A stretch of 64,000 nucleotides of DNA, from contig CBDDPY010000002.1 in the NCBI GenBank assembly GCA_965232515.1, positions 4,960,001 through 5,024,000 of the forward strand. The letters are read 5' to 3'. The notes under the pieces are model-generated. The model saw only the letters and a program-made list of their open reading frames with translations. It did no database searches and had not been told where the DNA came from. Shown here piece after piece: positions 44,218-61,886 of the stretch. The position numbers and the translations under genes were made by a program. Source of the DNA: Alphaproteobacteria bacterium. Lineage in GTDB: Bacteria; Pseudomonadota; Alphaproteobacteria; GCA-2731375. The first letter of the stretch is position 1, and each line of letters opens with the position of its first letter.

Positions 44218-44396
44218 ATCTCGACCTCCCCAAGCTGTTTCGCCCGCGCTGAAACGACGCGGACCCTCGATCGAGGTGCAACGCACATCCGCCTGGATAG
44301 TAGCACAAGATGCGATTGACCGCCGACGTTGTGCCGCGACGATGGTTTCGATAGAACCTGCTTCCCCCACGCGCATGCGGCAATGGAGACGACGAG

Positions 44397-44930: not shown

Positions 44931-44942
44931 CCGCCGGCTGCG

Positions 44943-46256
44943 TCAGAAGCCGATCTCCAGTTCGATGCCGACGAAGAAGGCCGGGTCCGCGTCGTCCGCG
45001 AAGGCGTCGCCCGGCAGGAACGCGCCGGCGATCGCTTCGAGCTCGACCGTCTCGCTCACCTGATAGCCGATGATCAGGTCCACGCCGTTGCCGATTGTGC
45101 GGTCGTGGCCGTCGGGATCGGCGTCGATGGCGGCGTTGCGAAGTTCGTCCGACGCCTCGTGTTGCCGGTAATGGTGGTAGACGAGATCGATCGAGCTGTC
45201 GTCGGTCGGGCGCAGGCCGAGGCCGGCGGTCAGGATGATCAGGTTGCTGAGCTCCGGGTCCAGCACCTCGCCGTAATACTTGAAGCTGGTGATGCCGTTG
45301 AAGTCGTCGTTGTTGTCCTGCAGGCCAGTCTGCCGGAAAGCCCGGTTGGTGCCGTCGTCGGGATCGTCGTCGCCGCTGCCGAAGGCAAGGCCCAGCGTCA
45401 ATGACGGCTCCCATGGCGCGTCGGCCACGTAGCTCGCGCCGACATCGAAACCGTAGCCGCGGATGTCGTCGTCGCCGGCCGCGCCGCGCACATGCATGAG
45501 CTCGACCCAGTAATCGATATTGCCGGTCAGCGCGCCGATCGACTGCAGGCCGATAAAGACCGCGTCCTCGTCGCGGCGGTCGCGGCCGTCGCGATAAAAC
45601 AGATACGGGCTGATCTCACTGTCCTCGCCCACCGCGTAGCGCCCGAGCAGGAAATAGTTGTTGGGTTCGTCTTCCGAGCGGTCGCCCAACAGGTCTTTTT
45701 TGACCAGATCCTCGCGGCTGACCGATGCTTCCAGGCCGAAGGCCGCGCGGCGCAGATAGAGCCGGACGCCGTCCAGATCCTCGTCATAGAGCCATTCGCG
45801 CTTGTCCTCGAACGGCTGCCGGCCGAGCGTCAGCGACAGGCCGGGGAAGACCTCGCGGAAATTCGCATAGGCCTGCTTGACCACCAGCTCGGCGTCCGGC
45901 GAGCCCCGGCCGTCCGGCGCGTCGATGTTGATCTCCTTGTTTATCTCGACATTCAGGAACGCGCGGAACCACGGCGTCGGATCGTAGGAGAAGGCGAGCT
46001 CCAGTTCCGGCTTGACCGCCGTGACGTCGTCGCTCAGGCCGCGCTCCAGGTCGAGGTCGCGTTCATGGGTGAGTTCGAGCTTCAACTCGGCGCCGAAGGA
46101 CAGATTGGGCGTCAGCTGCAGCCGGGTGTCGGGCGGATCGTCGAAATCGAACTCGACGCCCGAATCGTTGATTTGCGCCGCCGCGATTGGCACCGTCGCC
46201 AACAGCACGCCGGCACACGCCAGGCAGACCTCAAGCCGACGGCGCCAGCCGGCCAT
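44943..46256 (-). CDS. AlgE-like (alginate export family) outer-membrane beta-barrel
   Basis: Signal peptide; LGRQPFEDKREWLYDEDLDG, AFGSGD..FRQTGLQDN..YGEVLDPELSNL recalled as AlgE motifs; C-terminal Phe. Confidence 0.8.
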   Translation of the reverse strand: MAGWRRRLEVCLACAGVLLATVPIAAAQINDSGVEFDFDDPPDTRLQLTPNLSFGAELKLELTHERDLDLERGLSDDVTAVKPELELAFSYDPTPWFRAFLNVEINKEINIDAPDGRGSPDAELVVKQAYANFREVFPGLSLTLGRQPFEDKREWLYDEDLDGVRLYLRRAAFGLEASVSREDLVKKDLLGDRSEDEPNNYFLLGRYAVGEDSEISPYLFYRDGRDRRDEDAVFIGLQSIGALTGNIDYWVELMHVRGAAGDDDIRGYGFDVGASYVADAPWEPSLTLGLAFGSGDDDPDDGTNRAFRQTGLQDNNDDFNGITSFKYYGEVLDPELSNLIILTAGLGLRPTDDSSIDLVYHHYRQHEASDELRNAAIDADPDGHDRTIGNGVDLIIGYQVSETVELEAIAGAFLPGDAFADDADPAFFVGIELEIGF

Positions 46257-47523
46257 CTTCGTCGCGCCTCGGGGTCTGCGGCGCGTCCGATGTGTTCGTG
46301 TCGATGACGGGCATCGTCGTAACCGGGGCCGGTTTCACCGCCAGGAAGGCGTAGATCTCAGCCGCGATGGCGAGCGCGATGCGAACGCCCAGCATCGCCA
46401 TGACGCCCCAGGTGTTCCACAGGAAGCCCGCCAGGACCGGGCCGGCGACGCCGCCCGCCTCCTCGCCCAGGCTGAGCACCGCCATGGTGTGGGCGCGCTT
46501 GCGCCGGTCGAGGTCAGAATGCTGCGCCATCAGCGCGCCCCAGGCCGGCTTGAAGGCGGCCTTGCCGGCCTCGTCGATCAGACGACCGCCCATCATGCCG
46601 GCGAGGTTCGGCGCCACCATGAATACAATCGACGAGACCACGTTGGCGACGCCACGGACCCGCAGCACCAGGTTCCGGCTGACATTGTCGGACAACCAGC
46701 CAAAGCCGGGTCCCGCGACCAGCATGACCATCGCGGCCAGGAAATAGATCATGCCGGTCTCTGCCGCGCTCAGGCCGGCATACTCCACGGCCAGCACGGG
46801 GAACAGGCCGCCGATCATCTTGGCGCTGCTGCTCATCAAGAAGCCCAGCCCCATGATCGACACCAGCCGGCGCCGCAGGTCCGCCGGCCGGGCCTCGACG
46901 TCGGGCGTCTCGGCTGTCGCTTTCGCCGGCGCCGGCGTGCCGGATGCTTTCGCCGGCACGAAACGCCAGACCACGACGACCGGGATCAGCGACAGCAGGG
47001 CCGCGGCCACGAACACCAGTGAAAAATTCTGCGCCGTCGCCGTCAGCAGGATGCCGGCCAGCGCGTGGCCGAGCTTGCCCGAGACGCTCTTCACCGAGGC
47101 GTACCAGGCGAACGACGAGGCCACGGCCCGCTTGGCGCTGCGTTCGGCGATCAGGGCATAGGCCGCCGGGTCGCGCAGCGACCGCGATGCGCCATGCGCC
47201 ATGCGGATGGCGAAGAGATGCCAGGGCAGCCAGGCCAGCGCCAGCAGCAGGGACACCATCGAGCGTAAGGCCAAGGCCGCGACCAAACTGGGTTTCAGCC
47301 CGCAGCGGTCCGCCATCCGTCCCATCGCCGGCTTCAGGATCATGGCGACGGCGAAGTTCAGCGACAGCAGGATGCCGATCTCGGCGACCGACATGCCGAG
47401 ATGATGCGCGTAGAGCGGCAGGGCGAAGGCGATGATGCCGAAGCTGAGCCGGGACGCCAGCCCCTCGGCGACAATGGCCAGCAGAACCGTACGGTCGTGA
47501 CGCGGAGATTGTGCCATCGTCAT
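46231..47523 (-). CDS. MFS transporter
   Basis: About 12 TM; motif A GRMADRCGLK and GWLSDNVSR; ATGA overlap with upstream ATP-grasp gene. Confidence 0.88.
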   Translation of the reverse strand: MTMAQSPRHDRTVLLAIVAEGLASRLSFGIIAFALPLYAHHLGMSVAEIGILLSLNFAVAMILKPAMGRMADRCGLKPSLVAALALRSMVSLLLALAWLPWHLFAIRMAHGASRSLRDPAAYALIAERSAKRAVASSFAWYASVKSVSGKLGHALAGILLTATAQNFSLVFVAAALLSLIPVVVVWRFVPAKASGTPAPAKATAETPDVEARPADLRRRLVSIMGLGFLMSSSAKMIGGLFPVLAVEYAGLSAAETGMIYFLAAMVMLVAGPGFGWLSDNVSRNLVLRVRGVANVVSSIVFMVAPNLAGMMGGRLIDEAGKAAFKPAWGALMAQHSDLDRRKRAHTMAVLSLGEEAGGVAGPVLAGFLWNTWGVMAMLGVRIALAIAAEIYAFLAVKPAPVTTMPVIDTNTSDAPQTPRRDEDGRLAPSA

Positions 47524-48515
47524 CCGGCCGCCGTCGCCGGGCTTGCCGGCAACGCCGGCCGATCGCCGGGCAGCGTGCACCGCCCGTCGGCATAGTCGGC
47601 GATATAGTCGGCGATCAGCGGCGCCGCACCCGGCACGCCCTTGTAGCCGGGGAAGTAGTTCACATCCACGACCACCGGACCTTCCGGCCCCTCGATAAAA
47701 TCAAGCCCATAGAGTCCGAGGCCGAAGACCTCGCCGCAACTGAGCGCGATCCGCCGCACCTCTTCGCTGATCTCACAGGCTTCGCCGGCCCGCGTGAAGC
47801 TCGTCGGCGAAAACCGCTTTCGCGTCCCGAATACTTCGCTGCCGACGACATAGACCTTCAGGTCTTCGCCCGGGCCGGGGACAAAGTCCTGCACGATGAC
47901 CGGAACCGGCGACGGCGGCACGGCCGCCAGCTCGACCGCGTTGCGCACGACATGGATGTCGGCGCCGCGATGCCCGCGGTGCGGCTTGATGATCAACGGG
48001 CCGTCCGCCAGTTGCGGCGCCAGCAGCGTCAGGTCGCCGGTCACCCACGAGCGTGGCGCCGGCAGGTCCGCGGCGCGCAGCCGTCGGCAGGCGGTGATCT
48101 TGTCCTGCGCCGCGAGGCACGCGGCATAGGGATTGAGCATGCGGGCGCCCTGGCCATGCAACGTCCCCGCGAGACTGAGCGTCAGCTCGGTATGCGACTT
48201 GATGACGTAAAGATCGTGTTCGACGTCCAGCAGGTCTGCCCGCACGACCATCTCTTCGGCGATGCCGGTTTCGACTCTGAAGCCCCGTCCGCGCAGGATG
48301 TCGAAGACCTCGCGCAGTACCGGGCTGTCCACCGGTGGGACGCGCCGGACCAGCAGGAAATACAAGCTTCCGTTGGCGACCCTTGAGGGTTTGGCAAAGC
48401 CTTTTCGCGCTGTCTTTCGCGCTTTTCCGGTGGCCTTCATCCCGCTGGCGGCTCGTCCGAGGTTGCCTTCATGGGTACCAAGACGAGGCTGGGGGCGCGT
48501 TGCGACGACCTTCAT
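47520..48515 (-). CDS. ATP-grasp protein 4 (ITPK1/RimK-like)
   Basis: QDK, PLIIKPHRGHRG, IVQDFV..DLKVYVVG, GLYGLDFI..VVDVNYFPGYKGVP. Confidence 0.85.
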   Translation of the reverse strand: MKVVATRPQPRLGTHEGNLGRAASGMKATGKARKTARKGFAKPSRVANGSLYFLLVRRVPPVDSPVLREVFDILRGRGFRVETGIAEEMVVRADLLDVEHDLYVIKSHTELTLSLAGTLHGQGARMLNPYAACLAAQDKITACRRLRAADLPAPRSWVTGDLTLLAPQLADGPLIIKPHRGHRGADIHVVRNAVELAAVPPSPVPVIVQDFVPGPGEDLKVYVVGSEVFGTRKRFSPTSFTRAGEACEISEEVRRIALSCGEVFGLGLYGLDFIEGPEGPVVVDVNYFPGYKGVPGAAPLIADYIADYADGRCTLPGDRPALPASPATAAG

Positions 48516-49360
48516 GCTCGCTCCCCCCGGTCACGAGCGGCGTGCCCGTAGCCCTGGCCGGACTTGGCCTCCGCGCAGGCATCGTAAATATAGTCGGCCA
48601 GGTGCCGGCCGGCCTCCGGCACGCCTTTGAAGCCGGGAAAGGCGCTCGTGTCCACGACGTAGGGTCGGCCGTGGCTGATAACGACGTCGATTCCGAAGAC
48701 ATCGATACCGAAGGTTCGCCTGCAACGCATAACGATGTCGAGCAGGTCGTCGACGACTTCGAAAGGTTCACCCAGCTTTTGTTCATAGGTCTGCGCCGGC
48801 CACACGCGTTTGACGCCGAACACGCGTTCGCCGATGCAGTAGATCTTTCGATCCCGTCCTTCCGGCTCCTTGTAGCGTTGAGCTAAAACCGGCGACCTGT
48901 CGAGCGGGATCGTGCTCAGTTGATCTTGCATCCGAATGACATGTACGCCGCGCCCCCGTGAGCCCCGACAGGGCTTCACGATCAACGGCCCCTCATCCAG
49001 CAGGTCCACCAGTTGCTCCGGACGACTGGCGACATAGCTCTCCGGGGCCGGGATGTTGGCCGCCTCGAGCATCTGCGCGGCCACGATTTTGTCGCGCAGC
49101 ATCTCAGAGACCGGATAGGGATTGACGATCCGCGCGCCCAGAGCATGCAGCGCTCCGGCCAGGCTCAACGTCAAGTCGCTGCGATACTTCAAGATGTAGA
49201 GGTCATGTTCGACCCGTAATCGCGTCAGATCGGTCCGCCGTTCCTCCGGGGCGATGACCTCCACGGCAACGCCACGATCGGAAAGGCGCCGAATTATTTC
49301 GGCTGCGATGGAAACGCTATGTGTTTGACGCCCTGCGCGGAGGAACATGGCGATCCTCAT
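48512..49360 (-). CDS. ATP-grasp protein 3 (ITPK1/RimK-like)
   Basis: Start MRIAMF after GGAG; RDK, PLIVKPCRGSRG, LAQRY..DRKIYCIG, FGIDVV..VVDTSAFPGFKGVP. Confidence 0.85.
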   Translation of the reverse strand: MRIAMFLRAGRQTHSVSIAAEIIRRLSDRGVAVEVIAPEERRTDLTRLRVEHDLYILKYRSDLTLSLAGALHALGARIVNPYPVSEMLRDKIVAAQMLEAANIPAPESYVASRPEQLVDLLDEGPLIVKPCRGSRGRGVHVIRMQDQLSTIPLDRSPVLAQRYKEPEGRDRKIYCIGERVFGVKRVWPAQTYEQKLGEPFEVVDDLLDIVMRCRRTFGIDVFGIDVVISHGRPYVVDTSAFPGFKGVPEAGRHLADYIYDACAEAKSGQGYGHAARDRGERA

Positions 49361-49520
49361 GTCGAACTCCTCCGGCTGGCTTTCCGCCCGCATGCTTCTC
49401 TTGTCGTCTGGTGAATGAAGGCAACATCGTCGGTCGCCGCCTGGTTCGAGCCCGGCCCCCGCAAATCGGGCCTTTCTTTGAGCAAGACGCTGCGTTGCAT
49501 TGCCATCGCCATCACCCATT

Positions 49521-50804
49521 TCATTCAGGTCGGGGTGCACGGGTAATCAGGCTGTATAGCGCTCGCCCGGTTAAGCGACCGCATTCGGACATCTCGTTAT
49601 GACGCGAGGGCCGCTGCCAGGCCCAGGTCATGGTCTTCAGGTCGATCAGCAGGTTCTCTCGTTGCCAGCCGCGGGCGAAACGGTCGTATCGGCTCATGAC
49701 CAGGTGGCCCAGGCGGCTGGCGCTGTCGATCGCGCAGATGCGTTCCATGGCGGCGCGGACGCCCTGGCTGCCCATGTCGCGGTCGAGCAGCACCGCCGCC
49801 GGATCGTCCGGGTTGCGGTAGTGCAGGGCCGCCGCGATACCGACCGCCAGGTTGGTCGGCCGCCGGCCGGCCTTCGCCGCCAGCCGGAGAGCGCCAACCA
49901 GCCGGTCGGCGGGCGCCAGCTTGCGAAAGGGATCGCGGGCAACGCGGGTCACGGGATCGTTCAGCACGGCATTGTCGAAGCGCCGGAGAACAGCCGTCAG
50001 GGTATCGCGGCCGCCGGCGATGGCGGCGCCGTAGCGGGCGGCGAGCCCGGCCTGTCCCTCGGCCATCGCCTTCCGGACGACGGCGCGAATCTCCGGATCG
50101 CGGACCGCCGCGTGAATGTAGCGATAGCCCTTCAGATAGCCGATATAGGCGCAGGTCGCGTGCCCGGCGCTGAACATGTAGAGCTTGCGGTGCACATGAG
50201 CGCCGTAATCGGCGGCGACTTTCATGCCGGCGATCACCGGTTTCGGATCGCGCAGCGCCCGGCCGTCGACGACGAACGTCTCGGCTTGGTCGCCGATCAG
50301 GGTCACCGGCTCGGCACAATCGCGCGCCATCTCGAGGTGCGATACCGCGCGCGAGACGAGGGCGCTGACGAAACCGTGCGCGCCGGCGCGGCGCGCGCCC
50401 AGTTCCCGCGCCACCAGTTGGCGTAGTCGGCGGCCCGGGTCTTCCAGGTTCTCGAAGGCGAGCACGTTGACCGGCGACTGTCGCCGCGCCAGTCCCGCCG
50501 AGATCAGCGGCGCCACGTCGGCCAGGTTGTCGGGCCCCACCGCGGTCGCCACCACATTGGCGTTGGCGATCTCGTCGACGGCGCGGGCCTGGTCGTGGAT
50601 CGACACCGCGTCGACTCCACCGACCTCGGTTTCCACACTGTCGGCGCCGTTCGACAACCGCACCCGATAACGCCCGGCCGTGTTCAGGTGCGACAGCAGA
50701 CGCTGGTTGCGCCCGATGAAGGTCAGGTCATAGCCGGACGCCCGCAGCAGATGGCCGGCGAAGCCGCAGCCGACCCGGCCGGGGCCGATGATGACGGCTT
50801 TCAT
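49521..50804 (-). CDS. mtlD: Mannitol-1-phosphate 5-dehydrogenase-like polyol-phosphate dehydrogenase (divergent)
   Basis: MKAVIIGPGRVGCGF, TAVG, FENL, RKLYMFSAGHATCAYIG, RFDN..D..RVARDP.RKL..DRL match the MtlD pattern. Confidence 0.78.
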   Translation of the reverse strand: MKAVIIGPGRVGCGFAGHLLRASGYDLTFIGRNQRLLSHLNTAGRYRVRLSNGADSVETEVGGVDAVSIHDQARAVDEIANANVVATAVGPDNLADVAPLISAGLARRQSPVNVLAFENLEDPGRRLRQLVARELGARRAGAHGFVSALVSRAVSHLEMARDCAEPVTLIGDQAETFVVDGRALRDPKPVIAGMKVAADYGAHVHRKLYMFSAGHATCAYIGYLKGYRYIHAAVRDPEIRAVVRKAMAEGQAGLAARYGAAIAGGRDTLTAVLRRFDNAVLNDPVTRVARDPFRKLAPADRLVGALRLAAKAGRRPTNLAVGIAAALHYRNPDDPAAVLLDRDMGSQGVRAAMERICAIDSASRLGHLVMSRYDRFARGWQRENLLIDLKTMTWAWQRPSRHNEMSECGRLTGRALYSLITRAPRPE

Positions 50805-51640
50805 TGCAGCACCCTCCGTGGGGCGGCGGGCGTCGAGGCCCAGTCGGCATCCTGGGCGCAGGTGTAGACATAGTCGGCCAGACGTAGCGCCGCGTCCGGC
50901 ACGCCCTTGAACCCGGGAAAGCTGTTAACATCGACGACATAGGCCTGACCGTTGCTGAAGATCACGTCGATCCCGAATACGTCGATGCCGAAGGCGCGGC
51001 CGCTCATCAAGGCGATATCCCGCAATTCCGCCGAGATCGTCAGCGGGCGGCCCAGCTTCTGCCGGTAGGTCCGGGCCGGCCATTCGCGCTCGACGCCGAA
51101 CACCTGTCCGTTGATGCAATAGATCTTGTGGTCGAAGCGGTCCGGCGCCTTGTAGCGCTGGGCGATGACGGGTCCGGTGCTGGCCGGCAGTTGTTCCAGC
51201 TCCGCGCGGTCGCGCACCACGCGGATACCCCGGCCCTTCGAACCGCGGGCCGGTTTGATGACCAGCGCGCCTTCTTCCAGGATCGACGCCAGATCGCTCG
51301 GCCTTTCGGCGGCATAGGCCGGCGGCGTCGGGATCCGCGCCCGCTGCAGAATGCGGTAGACGATCGCCTTGTCCCTCAGCATCGCGGCCACGGGAAAGGG
51401 ATTGATGATCCGCGCGCCGGTCGCGTGCAGCGCGCCGGCGAAGCTCAGCGCGCCTTCGCTGCTCGATTTCAGGACATAGAGGTCGTGATGGGGCCAGCGC
51501 TGGGTCAGACAGATCGGGCTTTCGTCCGGACAGATCAGGTCGATCTCCGCGCCCCACTCCGACAGCAGGTGGACCATCTCCCGCATGATCGGGCTGCTTT
51601 GTCCGTCCGGATGGGCGCGAACCAGAAAACCGATTTTCAC
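50801..51640 (-). CDS. ATP-grasp protein 2 (ITPK1/RimK-like)
   Basis: RDK, LVIKPARGSKG, IAQRY..DHKIYCING, FGIDVI..YVVDVNSFPGFKGVP. Confidence 0.85.
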   Translation of the reverse strand: MKIGFLVRAHPDGQSSPIMREMVHLLSEWGAEIDLICPDESPICLTQRWPHHDLYVLKSSSEGALSFAGALHATGARIINPFPVAAMLRDKAIVYRILQRARIPTPPAYAAERPSDLASILEEGALVIKPARGSKGRGIRVVRDRAELEQLPASTGPVIAQRYKAPDRFDHKIYCINGQVFGVEREWPARTYRQKLGRPLTISAELRDIALMSGRAFGIDVFGIDVIFSNGQAYVVDVNSFPGFKGVPDAALRLADYVYTCAQDADWASTPAAPRRVLQ

Positions 51641-52527
51641 GACACCCTCCCCTTATCCGATGCCGGCGCACCGTCCGCGCTCAGGCAATGGGCGGCGATG
51701 TAATCGGCCAAACGGTGATCGGCGTCCGGCACGGCGGAATAGTTCGGGAAGTCGTTCACCTCGATGACCACCAGGCCTCTCGAGCTTTCCAGGCAATCGA
51801 CGCCATAGAGATCGAGTTCGAAGGCCGCGCGGCAGGTCTGCGCCAGGCGCCGCATGGCTGGCGTCACCGTTACCAGCTCGGCATCGTCGTCCATGGCCGC
51901 GTGCGGCAGCGGCGACGGCTTGCGTACCGCCCAGAGGTCGGCGCCGATGCCGTAGAGTTTCAGGTCATAGCTGTCGCTCGGCAGGAAGTGCTGGGCCAGG
52001 ACCGTCGGATCCGGCCACGCGAGGTCCACCAGCTCGCGCGCGCTGTCGACGAGACGTATGCCGCGGGCATTGTCGCCGAAGACGGGCTTCAGGATCAGCG
52101 GGTAGTCCACGCCGGGGTTCAGTTTGCGCGGAAGCAGGGCGATCGGGCCGACGAACGTCCGCGGGATCGGCAACCCCTCCGCCGCCAGCACCATGGACAT
52201 GTGCGCCTTGTTCAGCACCGCTCTGATGCTGGCGCTGCGGTTGATGGTGGGCGTGCCCTGCCGTTCCGCATGGCTCAGCAGCAACAGAAGCATCAGGCTC
52301 CGGCCGCGGGCCACCACGGCGTCGAACGTGATGGTCGGTGAACGATTGTCGAAACGGCAAACGGCGGCGTCCGGGTCGACCAGCTCGACGTCATAGCCGC
52401 GCTCGGCGAGCGCCGTCATCACGCCGGCGGGCTGCGGCTGCGACATGTAGCGCCGCTCGGCCAGAATGCCGATCTTCGGTGCCGTCGACGACCGACGGCA
52501 CCCCTGTGGGGATAGTCCCATCGTCAT
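51637..52527 (-). CDS. ATP-grasp protein 1 (ITPK1/RimK-like)
   Basis: LNK, PLILKPVFGDNARG, LAQHF..DLKLYGIG..AVRKPSP, YGVDCL..VIEVNDFPNY. Confidence 0.85.
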   Translation of the reverse strand: MTMGLSPQGCRRSSTAPKIGILAERRYMSQPQPAGVMTALAERGYDVELVDPDAAVCRFDNRSPTITFDAVVARGRSLMLLLLLSHAERQGTPTINRSASIRAVLNKAHMSMVLAAEGLPIPRTFVGPIALLPRKLNPGVDYPLILKPVFGDNARGIRLVDSARELVDLAWPDPTVLAQHFLPSDSYDLKLYGIGADLWAVRKPSPLPHAAMDDDAELVTVTPAMRRLAQTCRAAFELDLYGVDCLESSRGLVVIEVNDFPNYSAVPDADHRLADYIAAHCLSADGAPASDKGRVS

Positions 52528-52610
52528 GCCCTCTTTATTTCTGCGTCGCGGATTTCGTTTTGCCGCCGCCCGACTGCGGCATCCGCTGTCAATTCGTGTT
52601 TAGTTTGTTC

Positions 52611-52650
52611 GTTTCAGTTTTATGACAAATTTACACGGCGCAGATGACAA
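52611..52650 (-). promoter_or_regulatory. Pho-box-like direct repeats upstream of the ATP-grasp operon
   Basis: Minus strand reads TTGTCAT (52650-52644) and, 22 bp later, TTGTCAT-AAAA-CTGAAAC (52628-52611); PhoB consensus is CTGTCAT-A/T4-CTGTCAC. Confidence 0.65.
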
Positions 52651-52810
52651 ACACCTGTCGCCAAGATTAAGACCAGATGAATAAGACATTAGTGTTGGAT
52701 GAACGGGCGCGACCGCGCGACCAAGCCGTCTTTCAGTCCGTTATTTGCGCAACCCGGAGTCAGAAAAGCGGCGCCTGCGATCCGGTTTGGCGCGTTAGCC
52801 GACCGCGATG

Positions 52811-53605
52811 TCACTCAGGCATGCTGCGCCAGGTCTCCGCGCATTCGGTGCAGGACGACCGGCGCGGATGCAGAAACGCGAACGGGTTTGCCGTCAACGT
52901 CGGCACGACGGTGTCGACCACATCGCGGGCGCGCATCAGCTTCGCTGGTGCGTATCCGACCGGGCCTTCGGCTTGCAGGCCGCGTTCCGTCAGCCAGGCG
53001 TTCGCCAGGCGGAACAGCGCGCAGCAATGATCGTTCTCCAGATAGTCGATCCGCGTCGGCCGGCCGTCCCGCGACACGGTGATGTGCTTCGGGCGCCGGT
53101 AGGGCACGTCCGCCAGCAATTCGGCCAGATGCAGCATGGTGCTGGCGTCGTGGTCGACGCCCAGCAGCAGCACCTTGCCGTCGGCCTCCAGCACGCGCCC
53201 GACCGGGCTCTCGTGCTGATGCGGTGGCAGCACCAGATCGTCGGCCAGGATCTCGGTGGCCTTCGGCCCGCGCGCCGAGAACGCGAAGGCATGCCGGCCG
53301 CGCTTGACGCCCGGCAGCAGCCGGAATGTTTCGGCGACGACACCCAGATCCTCCGCCACCGGCGTCGATACGGGATCGAACACGGCGTCGTCGTCGCCAG
53401 TCCACGACGGCATCGCGATCGTGCCCTCGGGCCCGACGGCTGCGCCCAGCGCCGCAATCAACCCGGCCGGCCCGCCCGCCACCGGCCGCACCGCGCGAAA
53501 CGACGTATGCACCAGCACGACATCGCCACGCGCGACGCCGAGCGCCTGGAGCTGGGCGACGAGCTCCGGCACAGAAATCTCGCAACGGGCATGCCATGCG
53601 GTCAT
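52811..53605 (-). CDS. aac(3)-IV: Aminoglycoside 3-N-acetyltransferase, AAC(3)-IV-like
   Basis: LVHTSFRAVRP, MPSWTG.DD..FDP, DLGVV.ETF, LPPH..SPV.RV, LHLAEL, DYLENDHCC, EGPVG, FLHP..CTEC, collinear with AAC(3)-IVa as recalled. Confidence 0.85.
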   Translation of the reverse strand: MTAWHARCEISVPELVAQLQALGVARGDVVLVHTSFRAVRPVAGGPAGLIAALGAAVGPEGTIAMPSWTGDDDAVFDPVSTPVAEDLGVVAETFRLLPGVKRGRHAFAFSARGPKATEILADDLVLPPHQHESPVGRVLEADGKVLLLGVDHDASTMLHLAELLADVPYRRPKHITVSRDGRPTRIDYLENDHCCALFRLANAWLTERGLQAEGPVGYAPAKLMRARDVVDTVVPTLTANPFAFLHPRRSSCTECAETWRSMPE

Positions 53606-53766
53606 GGATCAAGCGCTTTTCTATAGGGTTGGCAGGTAGGGTCCGAATACGTTGACCGGGCGATGGCGAAGCCGGGGCGAAAAGACAGAGTCGATTCCAT
53701 GTATCGAGGGATCATAGCTTGAAGACCGTTTCTGGAGCGCCGGATTTGTCTTCGTCGTAAAATACA

Positions 53767-53776
53767 GGTATATACC
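53767..53776. promoter_or_regulatory. MarR operator-like palindrome
   Basis: GGTATATACC in AT-rich DNA immediately before the marR ATG. Confidence 0.5.
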
Positions 53777-53782
53777 CATAAT

Positions 53783-54199
53783 ATGACCGACACCGCCTGC
53801 ATGTGTATCGGGCTGCGCCGGGCCGGCCGAGCGGTCACGCGTTTCTACGATGACGCCCTGGCGCCGGCCGGGGTGAACGCCACGCAGTTCTCCCAGTTGC
53901 GCGCGATCCTGCGGGCCGGATCCCCGACCATCGGCGCGCTGGCTGACGCCACCGATCTCGACCGCAGCACGCTTGGACGCAATATCCGCGTCCTCGCGCG
54001 CATGGGTCTCGTCCGGTTCGAGCCGGGCGCGGACGAGCGCACGCGCCTTGTGTCGGTTACCACGGATGGCAAGCGGGTGTTGAAGGCCGCCACGCCGCTT
54101 TGGCGGACGGCGCAGTCGGCGCTCGCCGAGAAGCTGGGCGCCGGTCGCCGCGCCGTCCTGTTCGATCTTCTGCATGAGTTGGAGACCGTCGACGTCTGA
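53783..54199 (+). CDS. MarR family regulator (N-terminal CxC)
   Basis: CMCIGLRRAGRAVTRFYD, LDRSTLGRN, DERTRLVSVT..G. Confidence 0.9.
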   Translation: MTDTACMCIGLRRAGRAVTRFYDDALAPAGVNATQFSQLRAILRAGSPTIGALADATDLDRSTLGRNIRVLARMGLVRFEPGADERTRLVSVTTDGKRVLKAATPLWRTAQSALAEKLGAGRRAVLFDLLHELETVDV

Positions 54200-54250
54200 G
54201 TTTGCAACCGGCCGCGACAGACGGCCGGGCGACAAGAAGGGAGGCCGAAA

Positions 54251-56593
54251 ATGATGCAGCCACGGACCGAGCCATCGGCGCTGAAGTCCGTCGTCTGTAC
54301 CAGTTGCGACGGCTTTTGCCCCGTCGCGGCGAAGGTCGAGGACGGCCGCGTCGTCAAGGTCACCACCCGCGAGCACCCGTTCTTCAAGGACGTGATCTGC
54401 ATGAAGGGCGCCTATGCGCCGAAGTCCTTCGCGCATCCCGACCGCCTTCTGCATCCGCTGAAGCGCACCGGCGCGCGGGGCGAGGGCGGCTGGCAGCAGG
54501 TCACCTGGGACGACGCGCTCGACGACATCGCCGAGCGCCTGCGAACGGTCGTCGCCCGGTACGGGCCCGAAGCTTTCGCCGTCGCCGCCAGCAACGCCAA
54601 TTTCGGCCTCGACAACGGCCTGACGCGGCGGTTCATGAACCTCATCGGCTCGCCCAACTTCATCAGCGGCGTGGCCTACTGCATGGGCAACACGGCCGCC
54701 GTCAACCGCATGGTCTACGGCTGGTACCCGCGCGGCGACATCCTCAATTCGAAATGCATCGTGCTGTTCGGCCACGATCCCCGCCGGCATAGCTGGACGC
54801 TGGAATACAAATCCATCCGCGTCGCCCAGGCCGGCGGCGCCAAGCTGATCGTGCTCGACCCTCGCAAAAGCGAGAACGCCGAGGCCGCCGATATCTGGCT
54901 GCCGCTGCGCGCCGGCACCGACGCCGCCATGACCCTGGGCTGGCTGAACGTGATCCTGGAAGAGAGCCTCTACGACAAGGATTTCGTGCGCGACTGGACC
55001 GTCGGCTTCGACGCCTTTGCCGAGCGCGTGCGCGAGTATCCGCTGGACCGGGTCGCCGAGATCACCGGCGTCGACGCCGAACTGATCGCCGGGGCGGCGC
55101 GCATGTACGCCATGTCGTCGCCTGCCGTGATCCCCTGGTCCCCGATCACCGACCAGCAGGCCTCCTCGACCTCGGCGATCCGGCTGCAATGCGCCCTGCG
55201 GGCGCTCACCGGCAATCTCGACGTCAAGGGCGGCGAGATGTTCGCCGGCTTTCATCCCGGCATCCGCTCGGACACCGAGATCGAGCTGCATGACGAACTG
55301 TCCGACGCGCAGAAGGCGAAGCAGCTCGGGGCCGAAGAATTCCCGGTCTTCACCTATCGCGGCATGCGGGCGCTGGGCGATGCGACCGAACGCGTCTGGG
55401 GCGCGCGCTGGGCCAACCTGATTTCGGGCTGCTACATGGCGAACCCCATGGCCGTGTTCAAGGCCATGGCCGACGGCGATCCTTATCCCGTGCGGGCGTT
55501 CTTCGCGCTCGCCAACAACACGCTGATGTCGTTCGCCAACACCCGGCGGATCTACGACGCGCTGATGCGGCAGGACCTGATCGTCGCCTACGAGCATATG
55601 CTGACGCCGACGGCCCAGCTCGCCGACTACGTGCTGCCGGGCGACGCCTGGCTCGAGCGGCCGAGCATGATGGCGGGGCTCAGCGAGCAGGCCATGGCGC
55701 CGCCCGGCGACTGCAAGTCGATCGTGTATTTCTGGTGCGAGTTGGCAAACCGGATGGGAATGGAAGCGTATTTCCCGTGGGCATCGGTGGAAGCGCTGCT
55801 GGATTTCCGTCTGGAGCCGGCGGAGACGACCTGGGAGGGAGTCGTCGCCGCCGGCCGCCTGCCGAAGGCCGGCTACGAGGAGAAGAAGTATCTCAAGACC
55901 GGTTTCGCCACGCCGTCGGGCAAGGTCGAGCTCGCGTCCTCGGTGCTGGGCGATCTCGGCTTCGACCCACTGCCCTACTACCGCGAGGCCGCGGCGCCGG
56001 ACACCGACTTTCCGATGACCATGTTCATCGGCCTGCCCGACGACGAGTATTACCGCACCGGCCACCGGCATATCCCGGAATTGCGTCAGCGGGCGCAGGA
56101 CCCGACGCTCTTCGTCAACCCGGACGACGCCGACCGGCTCTGTCTGGACGAAGGCGGCTGGGCCCGGGTCGAAACCGCGGCCGGCGCCATGGCCGGCCGC
56201 GTCTTCGTGCGCTCGGCCATGCCGGCCGGGCTCATCCGCGTGCCGCACGGCTGGTGGAAACCGGAATCGCGGCCCGGTCTCGAGAACATGTCCGGCATGT
56301 GGTCGTTCGCCGACGCGCAGCTCACGTCGGACGACGATCCCGACCTGATCGACCGCGAGCAGGGCGTGCCGCACCTGAAGGGCGTGCCCTGTCGCATTTC
56401 CGCGCTCGACCCGGCCGAGGTCGCCCGGCTCGAAGCCGAGTTCGGCCCCACCGACCGGCTGCCGCGCGGCCCCGAGGGAAAGGTGCTGCGCGCGAAAAGC
56501 CGGCCCGGCGACCTCACGTTTGACGACGAATTCGGCGACGGCGTCGAATTCGAAGCGGTTCAGCTTTCCCTTTACGGCCGCGGCTCTGTATAG
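54251..56593 (+). CDS. Bis-PGD Mo/W enzyme of the acetylene hydratase clade
   Basis: CTSCDGFC..ICMK [4Fe-4S] motif with Asp after the second Cys; RRFMNLIGSPN..YCMGNTA; IPW..TD; MANP; PGDAWLERP; IRVPHG.W.PE; no Tat signal. Confidence 0.85.
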   Translation: MMQPRTEPSALKSVVCTSCDGFCPVAAKVEDGRVVKVTTREHPFFKDVICMKGAYAPKSFAHPDRLLHPLKRTGARGEGGWQQVTWDDALDDIAERLRTVVARYGPEAFAVAASNANFGLDNGLTRRFMNLIGSPNFISGVAYCMGNTAAVNRMVYGWYPRGDILNSKCIVLFGHDPRRHSWTLEYKSIRVAQAGGAKLIVLDPRKSENAEAADIWLPLRAGTDAAMTLGWLNVILEESLYDKDFVRDWTVGFDAFAERVREYPLDRVAEITGVDAELIAGAARMYAMSSPAVIPWSPITDQQASSTSAIRLQCALRALTGNLDVKGGEMFAGFHPGIRSDTEIELHDELSDAQKAKQLGAEEFPVFTYRGMRALGDATERVWGARWANLISGCYMANPMAVFKAMADGDPYPVRAFFALANNTLMSFANTRRIYDALMRQDLIVAYEHMLTPTAQLADYVLPGDAWLERPSMMAGLSEQAMAPPGDCKSIVYFWCELANRMGMEAYFPWASVEALLDFRLEPAETTWEGVVAAGRLPKAGYEEKKYLKTGFATPSGKVELASSVLGDLGFDPLPYYREAAAPDTDFPMTMFIGLPDDEYYRTGHRHIPELRQRAQDPTLFVNPDDADRLCLDEGGWARVETAAGAMAGRVFVRSAMPAGLIRVPHGWWKPESRPGLENMSGMWSFADAQLTSDDDPDLIDREQGVPHLKGVPCRISALDPAEVARLEAEFGPTDRLPRGPEGKVLRAKSRPGDLTFDDEFGDGVEFEAVQLSLYGRGSV

Positions 56594-56646
56594 CTAGGCG
56601 CGGGACAGGCGACGACGGATCGTCGCCGACATATCGAGAGGGAAGC

Positions 56647-57654
56647 ATGGCCCAGAACCGCCAGGTTATTGTCCGTGAGCTGCCGAAGGGCGCGCTGACG
56701 CAGGATCACTTCGAGTTGCGCGAGGCCGAGATGCCTGCGATCGGCGCGGGCGAGGCGCTGGTCCGCACCGTCCTCATGTCGATCGACGCCGCCAACCGGG
56801 CCTGGATGCAGGGCGCGACCTACCGCGAGGCCGTGAAGGCCGGCGACGTCATGCACACCTATTCGATCGGCGAGGTCGTGGAATCGAACGACGACAGCCT
56901 GACGCCGGGCGACATCGTCGCGGTCGAGGCGCGTTGGGCCGACTATGTGGCGGTCAAGGCGCGGCGCGCGCAGAAACTGCCCGACATTCGGCCGCTGTCG
57001 CACCTGCTGTCCGTCTACGGCATCGCCGGCAAGACCGCCTATCACGGTCTGGTCGGCGTCGGCCGGCCCAACGCCGGCGAGACCGTCGTGGTCTCGGCTG
57101 CGGCCGGCTCGGTCGGCATCTATGTCGGCCAGATCGCCAAGGCGCTCGGCTGCCGCGCCGTCGGCATCGCCGGCGGGCCCGAAAAGTGCGCCTGGGTGAC
57201 GGACGAATTGGGCTTCGATGCCTGCGTCGACTACCGCGCCGGCAACCTGTTCAAGGACCTGAAGGCCGCCTGCCCGGACGGCGTCGACATCTATTTCGAC
57301 AATGTCGGCGGCGCGGTGCTGGAAACCGTGCTGTTCCAGATGAACGAGAAGGGCCGCGTCGTCTGCTGCGGCGCCGTCAGCCAGTACGACGCCGACGCGC
57401 CGTCGGGTCCGCGCAACCTGCCCGGCCTGGTCGTGGTCAAGCGCCTGCGCATGGAGGGTTTCATCGTCATGGACTTCGCCGACCAGGACCAGAAGGCGAC
57501 CGACGACATCGGCAACTGGCTCCGCGACGGCAAGCTGAAGGTGGTCGACGACATCGTCGACGGCCTGGAGAACGCGCCCAGCGCCCTCATCGGCCTGCTC
57601 GCCGGCGACAACCGCGGCAAACGCATGGTCCGCGTCGCCCCCGACCCGGGGTGA
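56647..57654 (+). CDS. NADP-dependent oxidoreductase, PTGR/CurA (enone reductase) family
   Basis: TAYHGL, VSAAAGSVG, GIAGGPEKC, YFDNVGG, CGAVSQY, GLENAPSA..GDNRGK. Confidence 0.9.
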   Translation: MAQNRQVIVRELPKGALTQDHFELREAEMPAIGAGEALVRTVLMSIDAANRAWMQGATYREAVKAGDVMHTYSIGEVVESNDDSLTPGDIVAVEARWADYVAVKARRAQKLPDIRPLSHLLSVYGIAGKTAYHGLVGVGRPNAGETVVVSAAAGSVGIYVGQIAKALGCRAVGIAGGPEKCAWVTDELGFDACVDYRAGNLFKDLKAACPDGVDIYFDNVGGAVLETVLFQMNEKGRVVCCGAVSQYDADAPSGPRNLPGLVVVKRLRMEGFIVMDFADQDQKATDDIGNWLRDGKLKVVDDIVDGLENAPSALIGLLAGDNRGKRMVRVAPDPG

Positions 57655-57696
57655 GCGAGCGGCGGGCGCATTCCGACGGACGGCGCGGACGTTTGT

Positions 57697-58116
57697 TCAC
57701 AGTTTTTCGCCGGGCAGCTGACTGGCCTGCATCACCCAATCGGAGAACTGGTCATCGAGCCGATCGCCTTCGTGAATGTTGAAGTAGCGCACGTCCTTTT
57801 GCTTCGACTCGCCGGGCGGCGTGGGGCTCAGCGACGCGCCACTGAAGAAGGTGACTTGGACGTAATTCGTGAAGCAGTAATAGCTGAGGAACCAGCCCTG
57901 GCCCTCGATGCCATATAAGGGCGCGTTCCATTTGACAGCCTTCTGCATGTCGGGGACGGTGCGTTTGACGATGTCGTCGATGCCGCGCCCGACATCGCGT
58001 TTCCAACCCGGCATGGCGGCGATATAGGCCTGAACCGGACCGTCCCCATCGCCCTTCGGAATCTGCGGGTTGCCGCCCGTGAGAAGTTTCGGTTTCGACG
58101 ATTTCTTGTCTGCCAT
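57697..58116 (-). CDS. DUF1801 domain protein
   Basis: LLTGGNPQIPKGDGDGPVQAYIAAMPGWK..KAVKWNAPLYG..LPGEKL. Confidence 0.85.
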   Translation of the reverse strand: MADKKSSKPKLLTGGNPQIPKGDGDGPVQAYIAAMPGWKRDVGRGIDDIVKRTVPDMQKAVKWNAPLYGIEGQGWFLSYYCFTNYVQVTFFSGASLSPTPPGESKQKDVRYFNIHEGDRLDDQFSDWVMQASQLPGEKL

Positions 58117-58420: not shown

Positions 58421-58873
58421 CTAAGCCTCCGCGAACGACAGCGCCAGCAGGTCGCCGCGCAGGGTGTCGGTGTCATCGCCTCCCAGCAACCGGTCGACCA
58501 CATCATGCGTACGGCGCCAGATTGGCACGGCTTGTTTCAGGAGATCCCGGCCGGCGTCGGTCAGCCCGAGGCGGCGGCTGCGTTTATCATTCGGGTCCGG
58601 AAACACGGTCAAGAGGCCGCGCCGTTCCAGCGGCTTGGCGTTCGCCGTCAGCGTCGTCCGATCCATGGCGAGCAACCGGGCGACGTCGCCGATGCGCGGC
58701 GGCTCGGGCCGGTTAAGCGAGATCAACAACGAATATTGTCCGTGCGTCAGCCCGACGGGCCTGAGCGCGTCGTCGAACCGCCGGCCGATGGCCCGCGCGG
58801 CACGCTGCAAATGCAGGCACAGACAGCGGTCGCGAACCTCGTGCGTGACGCTGAGTGGCAGATCGTTTCTCAT
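58421..58873 (-). CDS. MarR family regulator (N-terminal CxC)
   Basis: CLCLHLQRAARAIGRRFD, MDRTTLTAN.KPLERRG, DKRSRRLGLTDAG. Confidence 0.9.
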   Translation of the reverse strand: MRNDLPLSVTHEVRDRCLCLHLQRAARAIGRRFDDALRPVGLTHGQYSLLISLNRPEPPRIGDVARLLAMDRTTLTANAKPLERRGLLTVFPDPNDKRSRRLGLTDAGRDLLKQAVPIWRRTHDVVDRLLGGDDTDTLRGDLLALSFAEA

Positions 58874-60513: not shown

Positions 60514-61596
60514 ATGGCCCGGAAAGTCCATGTGCTGATCGGCACCAAGAAGGGCGCCTTTGTGCTCGACGGCGACGCGGCGCGCAATTCGTGGTCGCTT
60601 CGCGGCCCGTTCTGCGAGACCTGGCCCATCAATCACGTCGTCGCCGACCCGGCGAGCGGCGTGATCTACGGCGCCGGCGGCAACGAGTGGTTCGGCCCGG
60701 CGGTGTGGAGGTCCGAAGACCTTGGTGAAAGCTGGACCCACTCGAGCGACGGCCTCGCCTATCCGGAAGGCCAGGACCCGGTCAAATCCGTCTGGAGCCT
60801 GGCGCCCGACGGCGACGGCCTCTACGCCGGCGTCGAGCCGGCCGGGCTGTTCCGCAGCGACGATGCCGGCCAGACCTGGCGGCACCTGCCCGGTTTGCAG
60901 GACCATCCCTCGCGCGCCGAATGGGAGCCGGGCGGCGCCGGCCTGATCCTGCATTCGATCGTCCGCCACCCGGCCGACCCGCAACAGCTCTGGATCGGCA
61001 TCTCGGCCGCGGGCGTGTTCCACACGTCGGACGGCGGCGTCACCTGGCAGCCGCGCAACCAGGGCACCCGCTGCGACTTTCTGCCGGAGGACCAGCGCTA
61101 TCCCGAATTCGGCCAGTGCGTGCATTCGCTGGCGATCGCGCCCGGCATGCCGGACCGCCTCTATCAGCAGAACCATTGCGGCATGTACCGCTCGGACGAC
61201 GGCGGCCGGTCCTGGGAAAGCATCGAGGCAGGCCTGCCGTCGACGTTCGGCTTTCCCGCGGCCGCGCATCCGCGCGACCCGGCGACGCTCTATCTGGTGC
61301 CGCTGAACGGCGACGTGCAGGGCCGTTACATGCCCGACGGCAGGGCCGCGGTCTGGCGCACGCGCGACGCCGGCGCCACCTGGCAGGACCTGCGCGCCGG
61401 CCTGCCGCAGCAGAACGCCTTCCTCGGCGTCCTTCGCCAGGCCATGGCGGCGGACTCGCTCGAGCCAGCCGGAATCTATTTCGGCACCTCGTCGGGCGCG
61501 CTGTTCGCCAGCGCCGACGAGGGCGAGAGCTGGACCTGCATCGCCCAGCACCTGCCGACCATCAGTTCGGTCGAAACCCTGGTCGTCGAGGCCTAG
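60514..61596 (+). CDS. BNR/Asp-box beta-propeller protein (sialidase-like fold, no signal peptide)
   Basis: Repeated SxDxGxTW boxes; IGTKKG, QQNHCGMYRSDDGG, STFGFP. Confidence 0.85.
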   Translation: MARKVHVLIGTKKGAFVLDGDAARNSWSLRGPFCETWPINHVVADPASGVIYGAGGNEWFGPAVWRSEDLGESWTHSSDGLAYPEGQDPVKSVWSLAPDGDGLYAGVEPAGLFRSDDAGQTWRHLPGLQDHPSRAEWEPGGAGLILHSIVRHPADPQQLWIGISAAGVFHTSDGGVTWQPRNQGTRCDFLPEDQRYPEFGQCVHSLAIAPGMPDRLYQQNHCGMYRSDDGGRSWESIEAGLPSTFGFPAAAHPRDPATLYLVPLNGDVQGRYMPDGRAAVWRTRDAGATWQDLRAGLPQQNAFLGVLRQAMAADSLEPAGIYFGTSSGALFASADEGESWTCIAQHLPTISSVETLVVEA

Positions 61597-61616
61597 GCCG
61601 CGCGGGGAAGACGGCG

Positions 61617-61886
61617 ATGCCCACGGTCACGGTCGTGCTGCCCCGGCCGTTCAAGACGCTGTTTCCGGACGCGCCCGCGCGGCTCGACGTCACCGCCGCA
61701 ACGGTCGCCGACCTGCTCGACGCCCTCGACGACCGCTGGCCCGGAATGCGCGACCGGGTCCGCGACTCGACGCCGGCGATCCGCCGCCACATGAAGGTCT
61801 TCGTCGATGGCGAGCGGGCGACCCTGGACACCCGCCTCGCGCCCGGCGCCGAGGTCTTTATCCTGACGGCGATCAGCGGTGGCTGA
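61617..61886 (+). CDS. MoaD/ThiS ubiquitin-like protein
   Basis: 89 aa; TVADLLDAL..PG, VFVDG, C-terminal AISGG. Confidence 0.88.
   Translation: MPTVTVVLPRPFKTLFPDAPARLDVTAATVADLLDALDDRWPGMRDRVRDSTPAIRRHMKVFVDGERATLDTRLAPGAEVFILTAISGG

Follow-up and report, generated by a model that had tools for sequence, protein, structure and literature searches.

What reaction would be catalyzed by a relative of acetylene hydratase (AH) that has kept the catalytic residues of that enzyme but has lost most of its acetylene-sized hydrophobic ring? This question is raised by a locus within a 64,000-nt stretch of contig CBDDPY010000002.1 from an alphaproteobacterium (hereafter, the window; coordinates are positions in the window unless noted). 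At this locus, three co-directional open reading frames (ORFs) are separated by intergenic gaps of just 51 and 53 bp. They encode a 138-amino-acid (aa) regulator of the MarR family (53783–54199, + strand; Pfam MarR_2 and MarR); a 780-aa protein of the MopB family (54251–56593, +; Pfam Molybdop_Fe4S4, Molybdopterin, and Molydop_binding); and a 335-aa NADPH-dependent reductase of the CurA/PTGR type, which belongs to the medium-chain dehydrogenases/reductases (56647–57654, +; Pfam ADH_N_2 and ADH_zinc_N; best NCBIfam model CurA, below its cut-off). The ATG of the middle gene is preceded, at a distance of 7 nt, by the Shine-Dalgarno sequence GGGAGG. We estimate a probability of about 50% that the MopB protein is a cytoplasmic AH-type hydratase for a bulkier substrate and that its gene, which lies in a block of ~12.3 kb, is likely co-transcribed with the CurA-type gene.

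When the MopB protein was compared to all PDB chains with phmmer, the top match was AH itself (2e7z), at 643 bits and E = 5e-192 across residues 12–711 of the query. The runner-up was PsrA/PhsA (E = 4e-64). Among the NCBIfam models, every one scored below its cut-off, and the best was PhsA (268 bits versus a cut-off of 694). Given the E value for 2e7z, the agreement in motifs with AH is not due to chance.

The AH equivalents were assigned by hand, using the alignment that phmmer made to 2e7z_A. The published residue number is the chain number plus 3, and this offset was consistent for Cys9/12/16/46, Ile113, Ala137, Met138, Cys141, Ile142, Trp179, and Trp293. The motif CTSCDGFC (residues 16–23; 54296–54319, +) contains C16, C19, and C23, which correspond to Cys9, Cys12, and Cys16 of AH, and D20, which corresponds to Asp13. 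The motif CMK (residues 50–52; 54398–54406, +) contains the fourth cysteine of the iron–sulfur (FeS) cluster, C50 (Cys46), and K52 (Lys48). The metal ligand Cys141 corresponds to C144, the second residue of YCMGNTA (residues 143–149; the codons of C144 and M145 are at 54680–54685, +), and Trp179 and Trp293 correspond to W182 (in HSW) and W296 (in IPW). A passage in PMC12096430 defines the AH subfamily as AH and similar proteins that have not been biochemically characterized, and it describes the four-cysteine [4Fe-4S] motif (Cys9, 12, 16, and 46) for this subfamily, the strict conservation of Cys141, and the high conservation of Asp13, which is specific to the subfamily and whose replacement by alanine inactivates AH. 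The protein has the four-domain MopB fold, and AH is the closest solved structure; residues equivalent to Cys141 and Asp13 are present along with this cysteine motif, and the protein appears to be cytoplasmic and stand-alone. By sequence, then, the product of 54251–56593 is a member of the Asp13-bearing AH subfamily.

The surroundings of the active site are another matter. The neighbours of the active site in AH include Trp179, Trp293, Trp472, Ile113, Ile142, Ala137, Met138, and Phe611, as listed in part of PMC7970554. In our protein, Ile113 is replaced by A116 and Ile142 by M145, and Ala137, Met138, and Phe611 are replaced by Gly, Val, and Tyr. The position of Ile14 is occupied by G21. Ile14 is said to be part of the hydrophobic ring of AH, and a variant of AH at Ile142 is reportedly inactive. 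Trp472 (chain residue 469) lies within the AH segment pnwegipf, which is opposite an 8-residue deletion in the query, and the shortened loop at this site (residues 471–484; 55661–55702, +) has no tryptophan. The six-residue hydrophobic ring of AH sensu stricto (EC 4.2.1.112) is thus not intact: G21, A116, and M145 stand in place of the three isoleucines, and the Trp472 loop is deleted.

An earlier note on this DNA had anticipated much of this. It proposed that the catalytic Asp13, Lys48, and Cys141 were kept and that the pocket isoleucines had become Gly, Ala, and Met, and the alignment to 2e7z agrees on all of these positions. It also held that there was an extra C-terminal tail of about 60 aa, and indeed the match to AH extends no further than residue 711. 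However, only two of the three pocket tryptophans that it considered to be kept are the right ones (Trp179 and Trp293). The third, W467 in the motif DAW, pairs with Trp459 of the 2e7z chain, which is Trp462 of AH and not Trp472. Judging from the alignment, the remodelling of the pocket goes beyond the note's account, as the Trp472 loop is gone. Finally, the note's claim that there is neither a signal for twin-arginine translocation (Tat) nor an electron-transfer subunit holds for this locus and for the relatives described below. No twin-arginine motif is present in the protein, whose first cluster cysteine is at residue 16, and no gene for an FeS subunit adjoins its gene in the window. Hence the Tat signal and/or adjacent FeS subunit that characterize complex iron-sulfur molybdoenzymes (of the PsrA/PhsA, Fdh, or Nap type) were not found.

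This combination of residues is shared by a large group of proteins from aerobic bacteria of the sea and of soil. A word-indexed protein search gave at least 120 relatives among the matches listed, with 62–83% identity and mostly 772–807 aa in length. Clustering at 90% identity splits the first 120 listed matches into more than 110 groups, and the relatives are named at most “molybdopterin-dependent oxidoreductase” or similar. Their hosts are Gammaproteobacteria, Burkholderiales, Hyphomicrobiaceae, Nitrobacteraceae, and Cupriavidus. A scan of one genome per species identified 74 loci, which fall into two forms. At 63 loci, the protein is of the same long form as ours (65–81% identity, with the match extending to about residue 779). 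These are found in marine or sponge-associated Alphaproteobacteria (Rhodospirillaceae-labelled metagenome-assembled genomes [MAGs], Thalassobaculaceae, BAL199, and SAR116), in Gammaproteobacteria (OM182 and Pseudomonadales), in Burkholderiales, and in Cupriavidus sp. 2SB. The other 11 loci (L061–L064, L066–L070, L072, and L080) encode a short form, which is 53–58% identical to the window protein and has 722–755 aa as called. The short form is found in Bradyrhizobium australafricanum, Paraburkholderia sp. C35, Caenimonas soli, a Roseovarius sp., a Moraxellaceae MAG, two Pseudomonadota MAGs, and four Bacteroidota MAGs. Within the class of our bacterium, the distribution of the long-form gene is patchy: it is present in 5 of the 24 genomes from the same family and in none of the 16 genomes from other families, and it was not found in the genome of a genus-mate (81% complete). 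In the literature that we searched, no paper dealt with the long-form clade.

We made a MAFFT alignment of 246 sequences, which comprise 112 long-form proteins, 11 short-form proteins, 122 other representatives at 50% identity with 650–800 aa, and the query. The residues that correspond to Cys141 and Lys48 (positions 144 and 52) are invariant in both forms (112/112 and 11/11), as are the tryptophans at positions 182, 296, and 467, and the fourth FeS cysteine (C50) is present in all 112 long-form proteins. Asp13 (position 20) is conserved in 111 of the 112 long-form and all 11 short-form proteins, versus just 5 of the 122 other representatives (the remaining 117 lack it). Around this core, the two forms differ. 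At the position of Ile14 (position 21), the long form has Gly in 87 proteins, Cys in 9, Asn in 7, Ser in 5, and Gln in 2 (n = 112), while the short form has Ile (7) or Val (4). The next residue, position 22, is Phe in 108 of 112 long-form proteins and Tyr (6) or Ser (5) in the short form. At the position of Ile113 (position 116), the long form usually has Ala (80 of 112; Trp in 16 and Gly in 9), and the short form always has Trp (11/11). At the position of Ile142 (position 145), Met (81 of 112) or Ala (27) is found in the long form, and Ala (6), Met (4), or Ser (1) in the short form. The loop that follows a conserved LER has 14 residues and no Trp in all 113 long-form sequences (including the query), versus 22 residues with a Trp in all 11 short-form sequences. 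Three further Asp-bearing representatives also have the 22-residue loop, in two of them with a Trp.

The long form also has a C-terminal tail that is specific to the clade. In our protein, this acidic tail has ~58 aa (residues 722–780; 56414–56590, +) and no counterpart in AH or in the short form. Across the 113 long-form sequences, 56–84 residues follow residue 722, versus 0–8 residues in the short form. The tail consensus is LEa.yGpt..lP.GPEGK...dFM.D...g.gvEFeA.eLslYGr. When we searched an atlas with the tail, all of the matches were under 0.9 and were only C-terminal fragments of molybdopterin proteins, and no other domain was found. None of the 113 long-form sequences has a twin-arginine motif, and the first cysteine is preceded by a median of 15 residues.

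The earlier note had suggested modelling the protein against the structure of AH. We built an AlphaFold2 model from an alignment of 85 sequences (mean predicted local distance difference test [pLDDT] of 92, predicted TM score of 0.92). The top Foldseek match for this model was 2e7z, on which it superposes with a TM score (TMt) of 0.94 and a root-mean-square deviation (rmsd) of 1.7 Å at 44% identity, and the remaining MopB structures were all at an rmsd of over 4.8 Å. In the model, the tail (residues 720–780) has two short helices and a pLDDT of 64–75. Judging by the sizes of the side chains and by the loop deletion, rather than by cavity volume, the substrate pocket should be much wider than that of AH.

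To place the two forms relative to each other, we used IQ-TREE (quick mode, LG+G4) to build a tree of 75 sequences that we chose: 24 of the long form (including the query), 11 of the short form, and 40 representatives. Support values are from the SH-like approximate likelihood ratio test (SH-aLRT) only. The Asp-bearing clade (38 sequences) and the long-form clade each had support of 100, and the clade that joins the long and short forms had support of 99. In this tree, then, the long-form proteins, which come from aerobic Proteobacteria, form a clade with strong support that is sister to the short form, whose pocket is more AH-like. The AH of Pelobacter is not in the tree, nor is it among our 150 representatives. 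We considered P0121, P0123, P0124, and P0130 as candidates for the Pelobacter AH itself and rejected them, as each is only ~45–50% related to 2e7z. By phmmer, AH scored 708.6 bits against a short-form protein (L063), 646.5 bits against the representative P0121, 643 bits against the query, and 612 and 607 bits against P0124 and P0123, while the query scored 948–969 bits against the short form. Judging by these phmmer scores, rather than by the tree, AH would lie within the Asp-bearing clade, outside of the clade of long and short forms, and somewhat nearer to the short form. So if the question is whether the protein groups with AH, as the earlier note supposed, it is inside the Asp-bearing AH subfamily but, by these scores, outside of AH proper. 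Because the short form retains Ile or Val at the position of Ile14, retains the Trp472 loop, and is more similar to 2e7z (708.6 versus 643 bits), it is a better candidate than the long form for the uncharacterized AH of aerobes.

Do the genes nearby indicate what the substrate might be? We used tblastn to compare the MarR and the reductase from the window to the 74 loci plus 6 more long-form loci from relatives. Upstream sequence of at least 600 bp is available at 63 of the 69 long-form loci, and downstream sequence of at least 1100 bp at 57. Because near-duplicate MAGs account for several loci, and some of the loci with G handles probably repeat named ones, these counts are not independent. 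A CurA-type gene was not found downstream of the long-form gene at any of the 57 loci, and a MarR gene was found upstream at just 1 of the 63 (L045; 48% identity). At L045, the order is nitroreductase, MarR, enzyme, and hydrolase; this is also the only locus with a CurA-like gene nearby (29% identity, 3 kb away, and on the opposite strand). At one short-form locus (L063), a MarR gene is 4.3 kb distant. Among the flanking ORFs, which we clustered and compared to Pfam (23 and then 177 of them), there was neither a partner common to all loci nor a domain of an FeS subunit, and the enzyme is, as far as the sequences indicate, cytoplasmic and stand-alone.

The neighbours that do recur are CoA-transferase III (12 loci, and directly downstream in 8), enoyl-CoA hydratase (10 loci), acyl-CoA synthetase (9 loci), and a pair of DUF1538 proteins with P-II and CBS proteins (7 loci). 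In the seven closest relatives (L009, L014, L038, L041, L042, L083, and L084, with 79–81% identity), CoA-transferase III lies directly 3' of the enzyme, and a pair of DUF1538 membrane proteins, accompanied by P-II-like and CBS proteins, precedes the enzyme on the other strand. Other recurrent neighbours are sulfatases, Baeyer–Villiger or flavin-containing monooxygenases (BVMO/FMO), luciferase-like monooxygenases, PhyH, glutathione S-transferases, nitroreductases, alpha/beta hydrolases, and short-chain dehydrogenases/reductases. The regulators near the enzyme are TetR and, mainly in the short form, HxlR. We rejected the idea that any of these is a conserved operon partner that names the substrate, as the families of the commonest neighbours are abundant in general and near-duplicate MAGs make up many of the loci. 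Overall, these look like variable catabolic or detoxification surroundings that name no substrate.

The arrangement in the window has a more local explanation. The genus-mate (L090) has an orthologue of the reductase (90% identity) with neither the AH-like gene nor MarR upstream, and the same is true of further CurA orthologues at 70%, 63%, 60%, and 59% identity (five of five in all). In blastn, L090 positions 1323–2364 match window positions 56616–57657 (90.5% identity) and L090 positions 1035–1241 match 44080–44286 (87%). The distance between the matched stretches is 81 bp in the genus-mate and 12,329 bp in the window, and the 207-bp stretch at 44080–44286 is single-copy in the host genome. 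The intervening ~12.3-kb block (44287–56615) is therefore present here and not in the genus-mate. At the right breakpoint, homology resumes 22 bp past the stop codon of the AH-like gene and 31 bp before the ATG of the reductase, so that only 31 bp of the native region upstream of CurA is kept. Both an insertion here and a deletion in the genus-mate fit these data, and either way, the junction between the enzyme and the reductase is the edge of an indel. The adjacency of the two genes is real, but it looks like the product of an insertion and not like a conserved pathway; in other words, by comparison with these orthologues, the link to the reductase is a recent one and not a conserved one.

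With its former upstream region gone, the reductase would probably be transcribed by read-through from the enzyme gene, and the two genes probably form a read-through operon in this strain. A scan for consensus terminators gave a terminator-like hairpin after the reductase (57675–57697, +) and none between the enzyme and the reductase, but this evidence is weak because the number of such sites does not exceed that in shuffled sequence. Contigs from RNA library X5, from a strain that is 95–97% identical, span 53700–54669 (MarR to enzyme) and 56441–56854 (enzyme to reductase). Because these contigs cover both junctions, the close strain has the same gene order.

The block also contains genes for an alginate-export-type porin, a major facilitator superfamily (MFS) transporter, four RimK-like ATP-grasp proteins, a mannitol-dehydrogenase-like protein, and an AAC(3)-IV-like protein, along with the MarR and the AH-like genes; it has no integrase or transposase. 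The minus-strand cluster (porin, MFS transporter, four ATP-grasp proteins, and the mannitol-dehydrogenase-like protein) looks like a small-molecule or peptide-ligation pathway. The AAC(3)-IV-like gene (52811–53605, −) is divergent from the MarR gene and scores 380 bits with NCBIfam's AAC(3)-IV model, just short of the cut-off of 420, in what looks like the genome of an environmental alphaproteobacterium. Just outside of the block, the 207-bp stretch contains an ORF of ~44 codons (44075–44218, −) that, in the genus-mate, is divergent from and just upstream of the reductase orthologue. Longer ORFs that overlap 44075–44218 had no match in Pfam.

The best PDB match for the MarR of the window is MosR (4fx0; E = 1.4e-19 over residues 5–121). 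Its Cys6-Met7-Cys8 (codons at 53798–53806, +) form a C-x-C at the start of helix 1 that aligns with the C-x-C of 4fx0: aCmCiglRRA is aligned to eCaCyttRRA in the 4fx0 chain. In Mycobacterium tuberculosis, MosR is described in part of PMC5823404 as sensing oxidation via an intrachain disulfide between Cys10 and Cys12 at the start of helix 1 and as controlling the neighbouring oxidoreductase gene. As it has both the MarR winged helix and the C-x-C at the start of helix 1, the window's MarR is predicted to be MosR-like with a C-x-C redox switch. In the MarR from L045, only the first of the two cysteines is kept. A search for operator palindromes across 53600–54260 found only two weak GC-rich repeats, both of them in coding sequence. 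A second MarR in the window (58421–58873, −), which is 36% identical to the first, has C-L-C at the same N-terminal position. It adjoins small genes of stress or detoxification types: DUF1801, two PhnB-like (3-dmu-9_3-mt), DUF1428, and GFA.

As for the host, its 7.39-Mb genome encodes three heme-copper oxidase subunit I proteins (COX1), a MobA that scores above its model's cut-off, and 11 further MopB matches besides our protein. From its gene content, it is equipped for O2 respiration and for the synthesis of the bis-molybdopterin guanine dinucleotide (bis-MGD) cofactor. Given MobA and the 11 other MopB matches, the host can be expected to mature the AH-like enzyme. An Rfam scan of the window found no match at all, whether to the molybdenum cofactor riboswitch or to another, and a promoter scan gave a single match, on the minus strand, that was no better than in shuffled sequence. 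Separately, a short ORF at 61596–61886 (+), which follows a BNR-repeat protein, may have a MoaD/ThiS-type ubiquitin fold, as its translation resembles one and ends in GG.

Because the catalytic shells are strictly conserved, the pocket residues have been shrunk or deleted, and the tail is fixed in the clade, AH-type hydration of a larger substrate is the simplest reading. Under this reading, the enzyme would bind Mo- or W-bis-MGD and one [4Fe-4S] cluster. The residues of the first and second shells are as in AH, with the Cys141 ligand, Asp13 held by Trp179, Lys48, Trp293, and the FeS cluster kept, while the acetylene-sized hydrophobic ring is mostly lost and a conserved acidic tail of ~58 aa has been gained. 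The chemistry would be the Asp-assisted, non-redox addition of water at a reduced metal centre, and the substrate would be bulkier or functionalized: a substituted alkyne, an alkynoate, an ynone, an enyne, or a compound with another cumulated or triple bond. We infer this chemistry and the larger substrate from the conserved and altered residues. In this strain, the ~12.3-kb block would have brought the gene next to the resident CurA-type reductase, the two would be co-transcribed, and their expression would be under the control of the MosR-like thiol-switch MarR, and so would respond to redox state or electrophiles.

Several points weigh against this reading. AH requires a strongly reduced, O2-sensitive metal centre, and the hosts here are aerobes that would have to maintain one. 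The space freed in the pocket may be refilled by the tail or by Phe22. The neighbourhoods of the enzyme are, from the gene content of these loci, too variable to indicate the substrate. The contigs assembled from the RNA libraries (X5 and X6) are evidence that the genes are present, rather than that they are transcribed or that they share a single transcript, and there were 0 reads from the raw polyA RNA runs (X17 and X21), which therefore say nothing about expression. Within the AH subfamily, the Pelobacter enzyme is the only one that a passage in PMC12096430 names as assayed, so for our protein, the hydratase chemistry is extrapolated from ~44–48% identity. Some relatives of AH have other chemistries, such as catechol dehydroxylation (PMC7028382) and the formation of C–S bonds (PMC9516567).

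There is also a bolder version of AH-type hydration. The long form might represent a second type of reaction by the AH machinery: an O2-tolerant, probably Mo-containing, non-redox hydro-lyase for larger natural alkynes or related unsaturated compounds, widespread in aerobic Proteobacteria from the sea and from soil, with the conserved acidic tail replacing the gating by the Trp472 loop. We regard this as less likely than not, and its candidate substrates would be alkynoates, polyacetylenes, enynes, nitriles, or allenes.

Alternatively, the protein could be a redox enzyme that reduces, dehydroxylates, or oxidizes an organic or inorganic substrate, with the [4Fe-4S] cluster exchanging electrons with a soluble partner encoded elsewhere. 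The partner might be a ferredoxin, a flavodoxin, or an NAD(P)H-linked protein, as in other cytoplasmic MopB enzymes. The other characterized MopB enzymes are all redox enzymes, and the nearest of them beyond AH are the catechol dehydroxylases and the sulfur-transferring metallopterin-dependent ergothioneine synthase (MES). Also, Lys48 takes part in electron transfer elsewhere in the family, and its equivalent here does not vary; the recurrent nitroreductase, luciferase-like, and BVMO-type monooxygenase neighbours suggest redox catabolism. However, AH keeps both Lys48 and the cluster without any redox turnover. Moreover, the pair of Asp13 and Trp179, which is specific to the AH subfamily, is invariant, and with no conserved partner and none of the 177 flanking ORFs having an FeS-subunit domain, we consider a redox role to be unlikely.

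The earlier note had favoured a role in the detoxification or catabolism of electrophiles, with the hydratase acting together with the reductase. In a dedicated module of this kind, MarR, the hydratase, and CurA would act together, and the hydratase would make an enone, an enal, or a diketone for the reductase to saturate. Some of the components hold up. The MarR does bear cysteines, as the note said, and Cys6 and Cys8 are aligned with the switch of MosR; the host, which the note thought to be probably aerobic, has the three COX1 genes; and the three genes, with their short gaps and probable read-through, are in the identical order in the 95–97% identical strain. The hydration of an enyne or an ynone would chemically yield a substrate of the CurA type, and L045 combines a 48%-identical MarR with a nitroreductase, the enzyme, and a hydrolase. 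The functional coupling to an enone reductase is not supported by the comparisons above: CurA is downstream at 0 of 57 loci and MarR is upstream at 1 of 63, the five CurA orthologues (59–90% identity) have neither the enzyme nor MarR upstream, and the junction is at the edge of the 12.3-kb indel. Also, CurA-type genes are abundant paralogues, with three matches in the host genome. We therefore view a dedicated module as doubtful.

That our protein is simply the Mo-type acetylene hydratase of aerobes, converting acetylene to acetaldehyde, is quite improbable: although all of the catalytic and cofactor residues are kept, and although part of PMC7858054 reports that the enzyme of aerobic acetylene users is Mo-dependent, immunologically distinct from that of Pelobacter, and uncharacterized, four of the six acetylene-ring residues are lost (three Ile replaced and Trp472 deleted), the short-form sister clade fits this role better on the grounds given above, and an aldehyde or alcohol dehydrogenase is not consistently adjacent (there is one instance, at L046).

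How does this locus compare to known systems? The reductase has the ADH_N_2 and ADH_zinc_N domains of CurA (YncB) and PTGR1-type reductases, and its best NCBIfam model is curcumin reductase CurA (354.7 bits, E = 4.6e-106). Its score is under the equivalog cut-off of 440, and it is one of several paralogues in its genome. The MarR resembles MosR (Rv1049; PDB 4fx0/4fx4), including at the N-terminal C-x-C, but MosR is from another phylum, and the presumed target of the window's MarR is the gene for a molybdoenzyme. The argument from neighbouring genes for the role of the AH-like enzyme is weak, and its function must come from assays.

Among the molybdoenzymes, the catechol dehydroxylases (Dadh, Cldh, and others) and MES resemble our protein in that their closest characterized relative is AH (PMC7028382; PMC9516567). 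They are much more distant, with a reported 27% identity to AH for MES (PMC9516567), and these enzymes derive from anaerobes and perform redox or sulfur-transfer reactions with partner subunits or a fused desulfurase. The short-form clade (~722–733 aa) is far closer: it is the sister clade, with the same catalytic residues, aerobic hosts, and a stand-alone gene. It differs in keeping Ile/Val14 and the Trp472 loop, in having Trp at the position of Ile113, in lacking the tail, in being closer to 2e7z, and in often having an HxlR-type regulator adjacent. An acetylene-using strain of Bradyrhizobium, one of the genera with the short form, has reportedly been described.

The comparison that matters most is with the AH of Pelobacter (Syntrophotalea) acetylenicus (2e7z; EC 4.2.1.112), which is described in a passage of PMC12096430 as the one AH that has been characterized to date, with a disputed mechanism, and as the sole non-redox Mo/W enzyme known. 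Our protein shares its four-domain fold, its FeS cysteine motif, the equivalents of Cys141, Asp13, Lys48, Trp179, and Trp293, a cytoplasmic location, and the lack of a partner subunit. It differs in having Gly, Ala, and Met in place of the three Ile, in the loop deletion, in the ~58-aa tail, and in its aerobic host. A large clade from aerobes that has the catalytic Asp/Cys/Trp set and an opened pocket is a natural experiment on the active site of AH. The long-form enzyme is possibly an O2-tolerant and more readily expressed model of it, and is a candidate for the hydration of alkynes or related compounds in bacteria from the ocean and from sponges.

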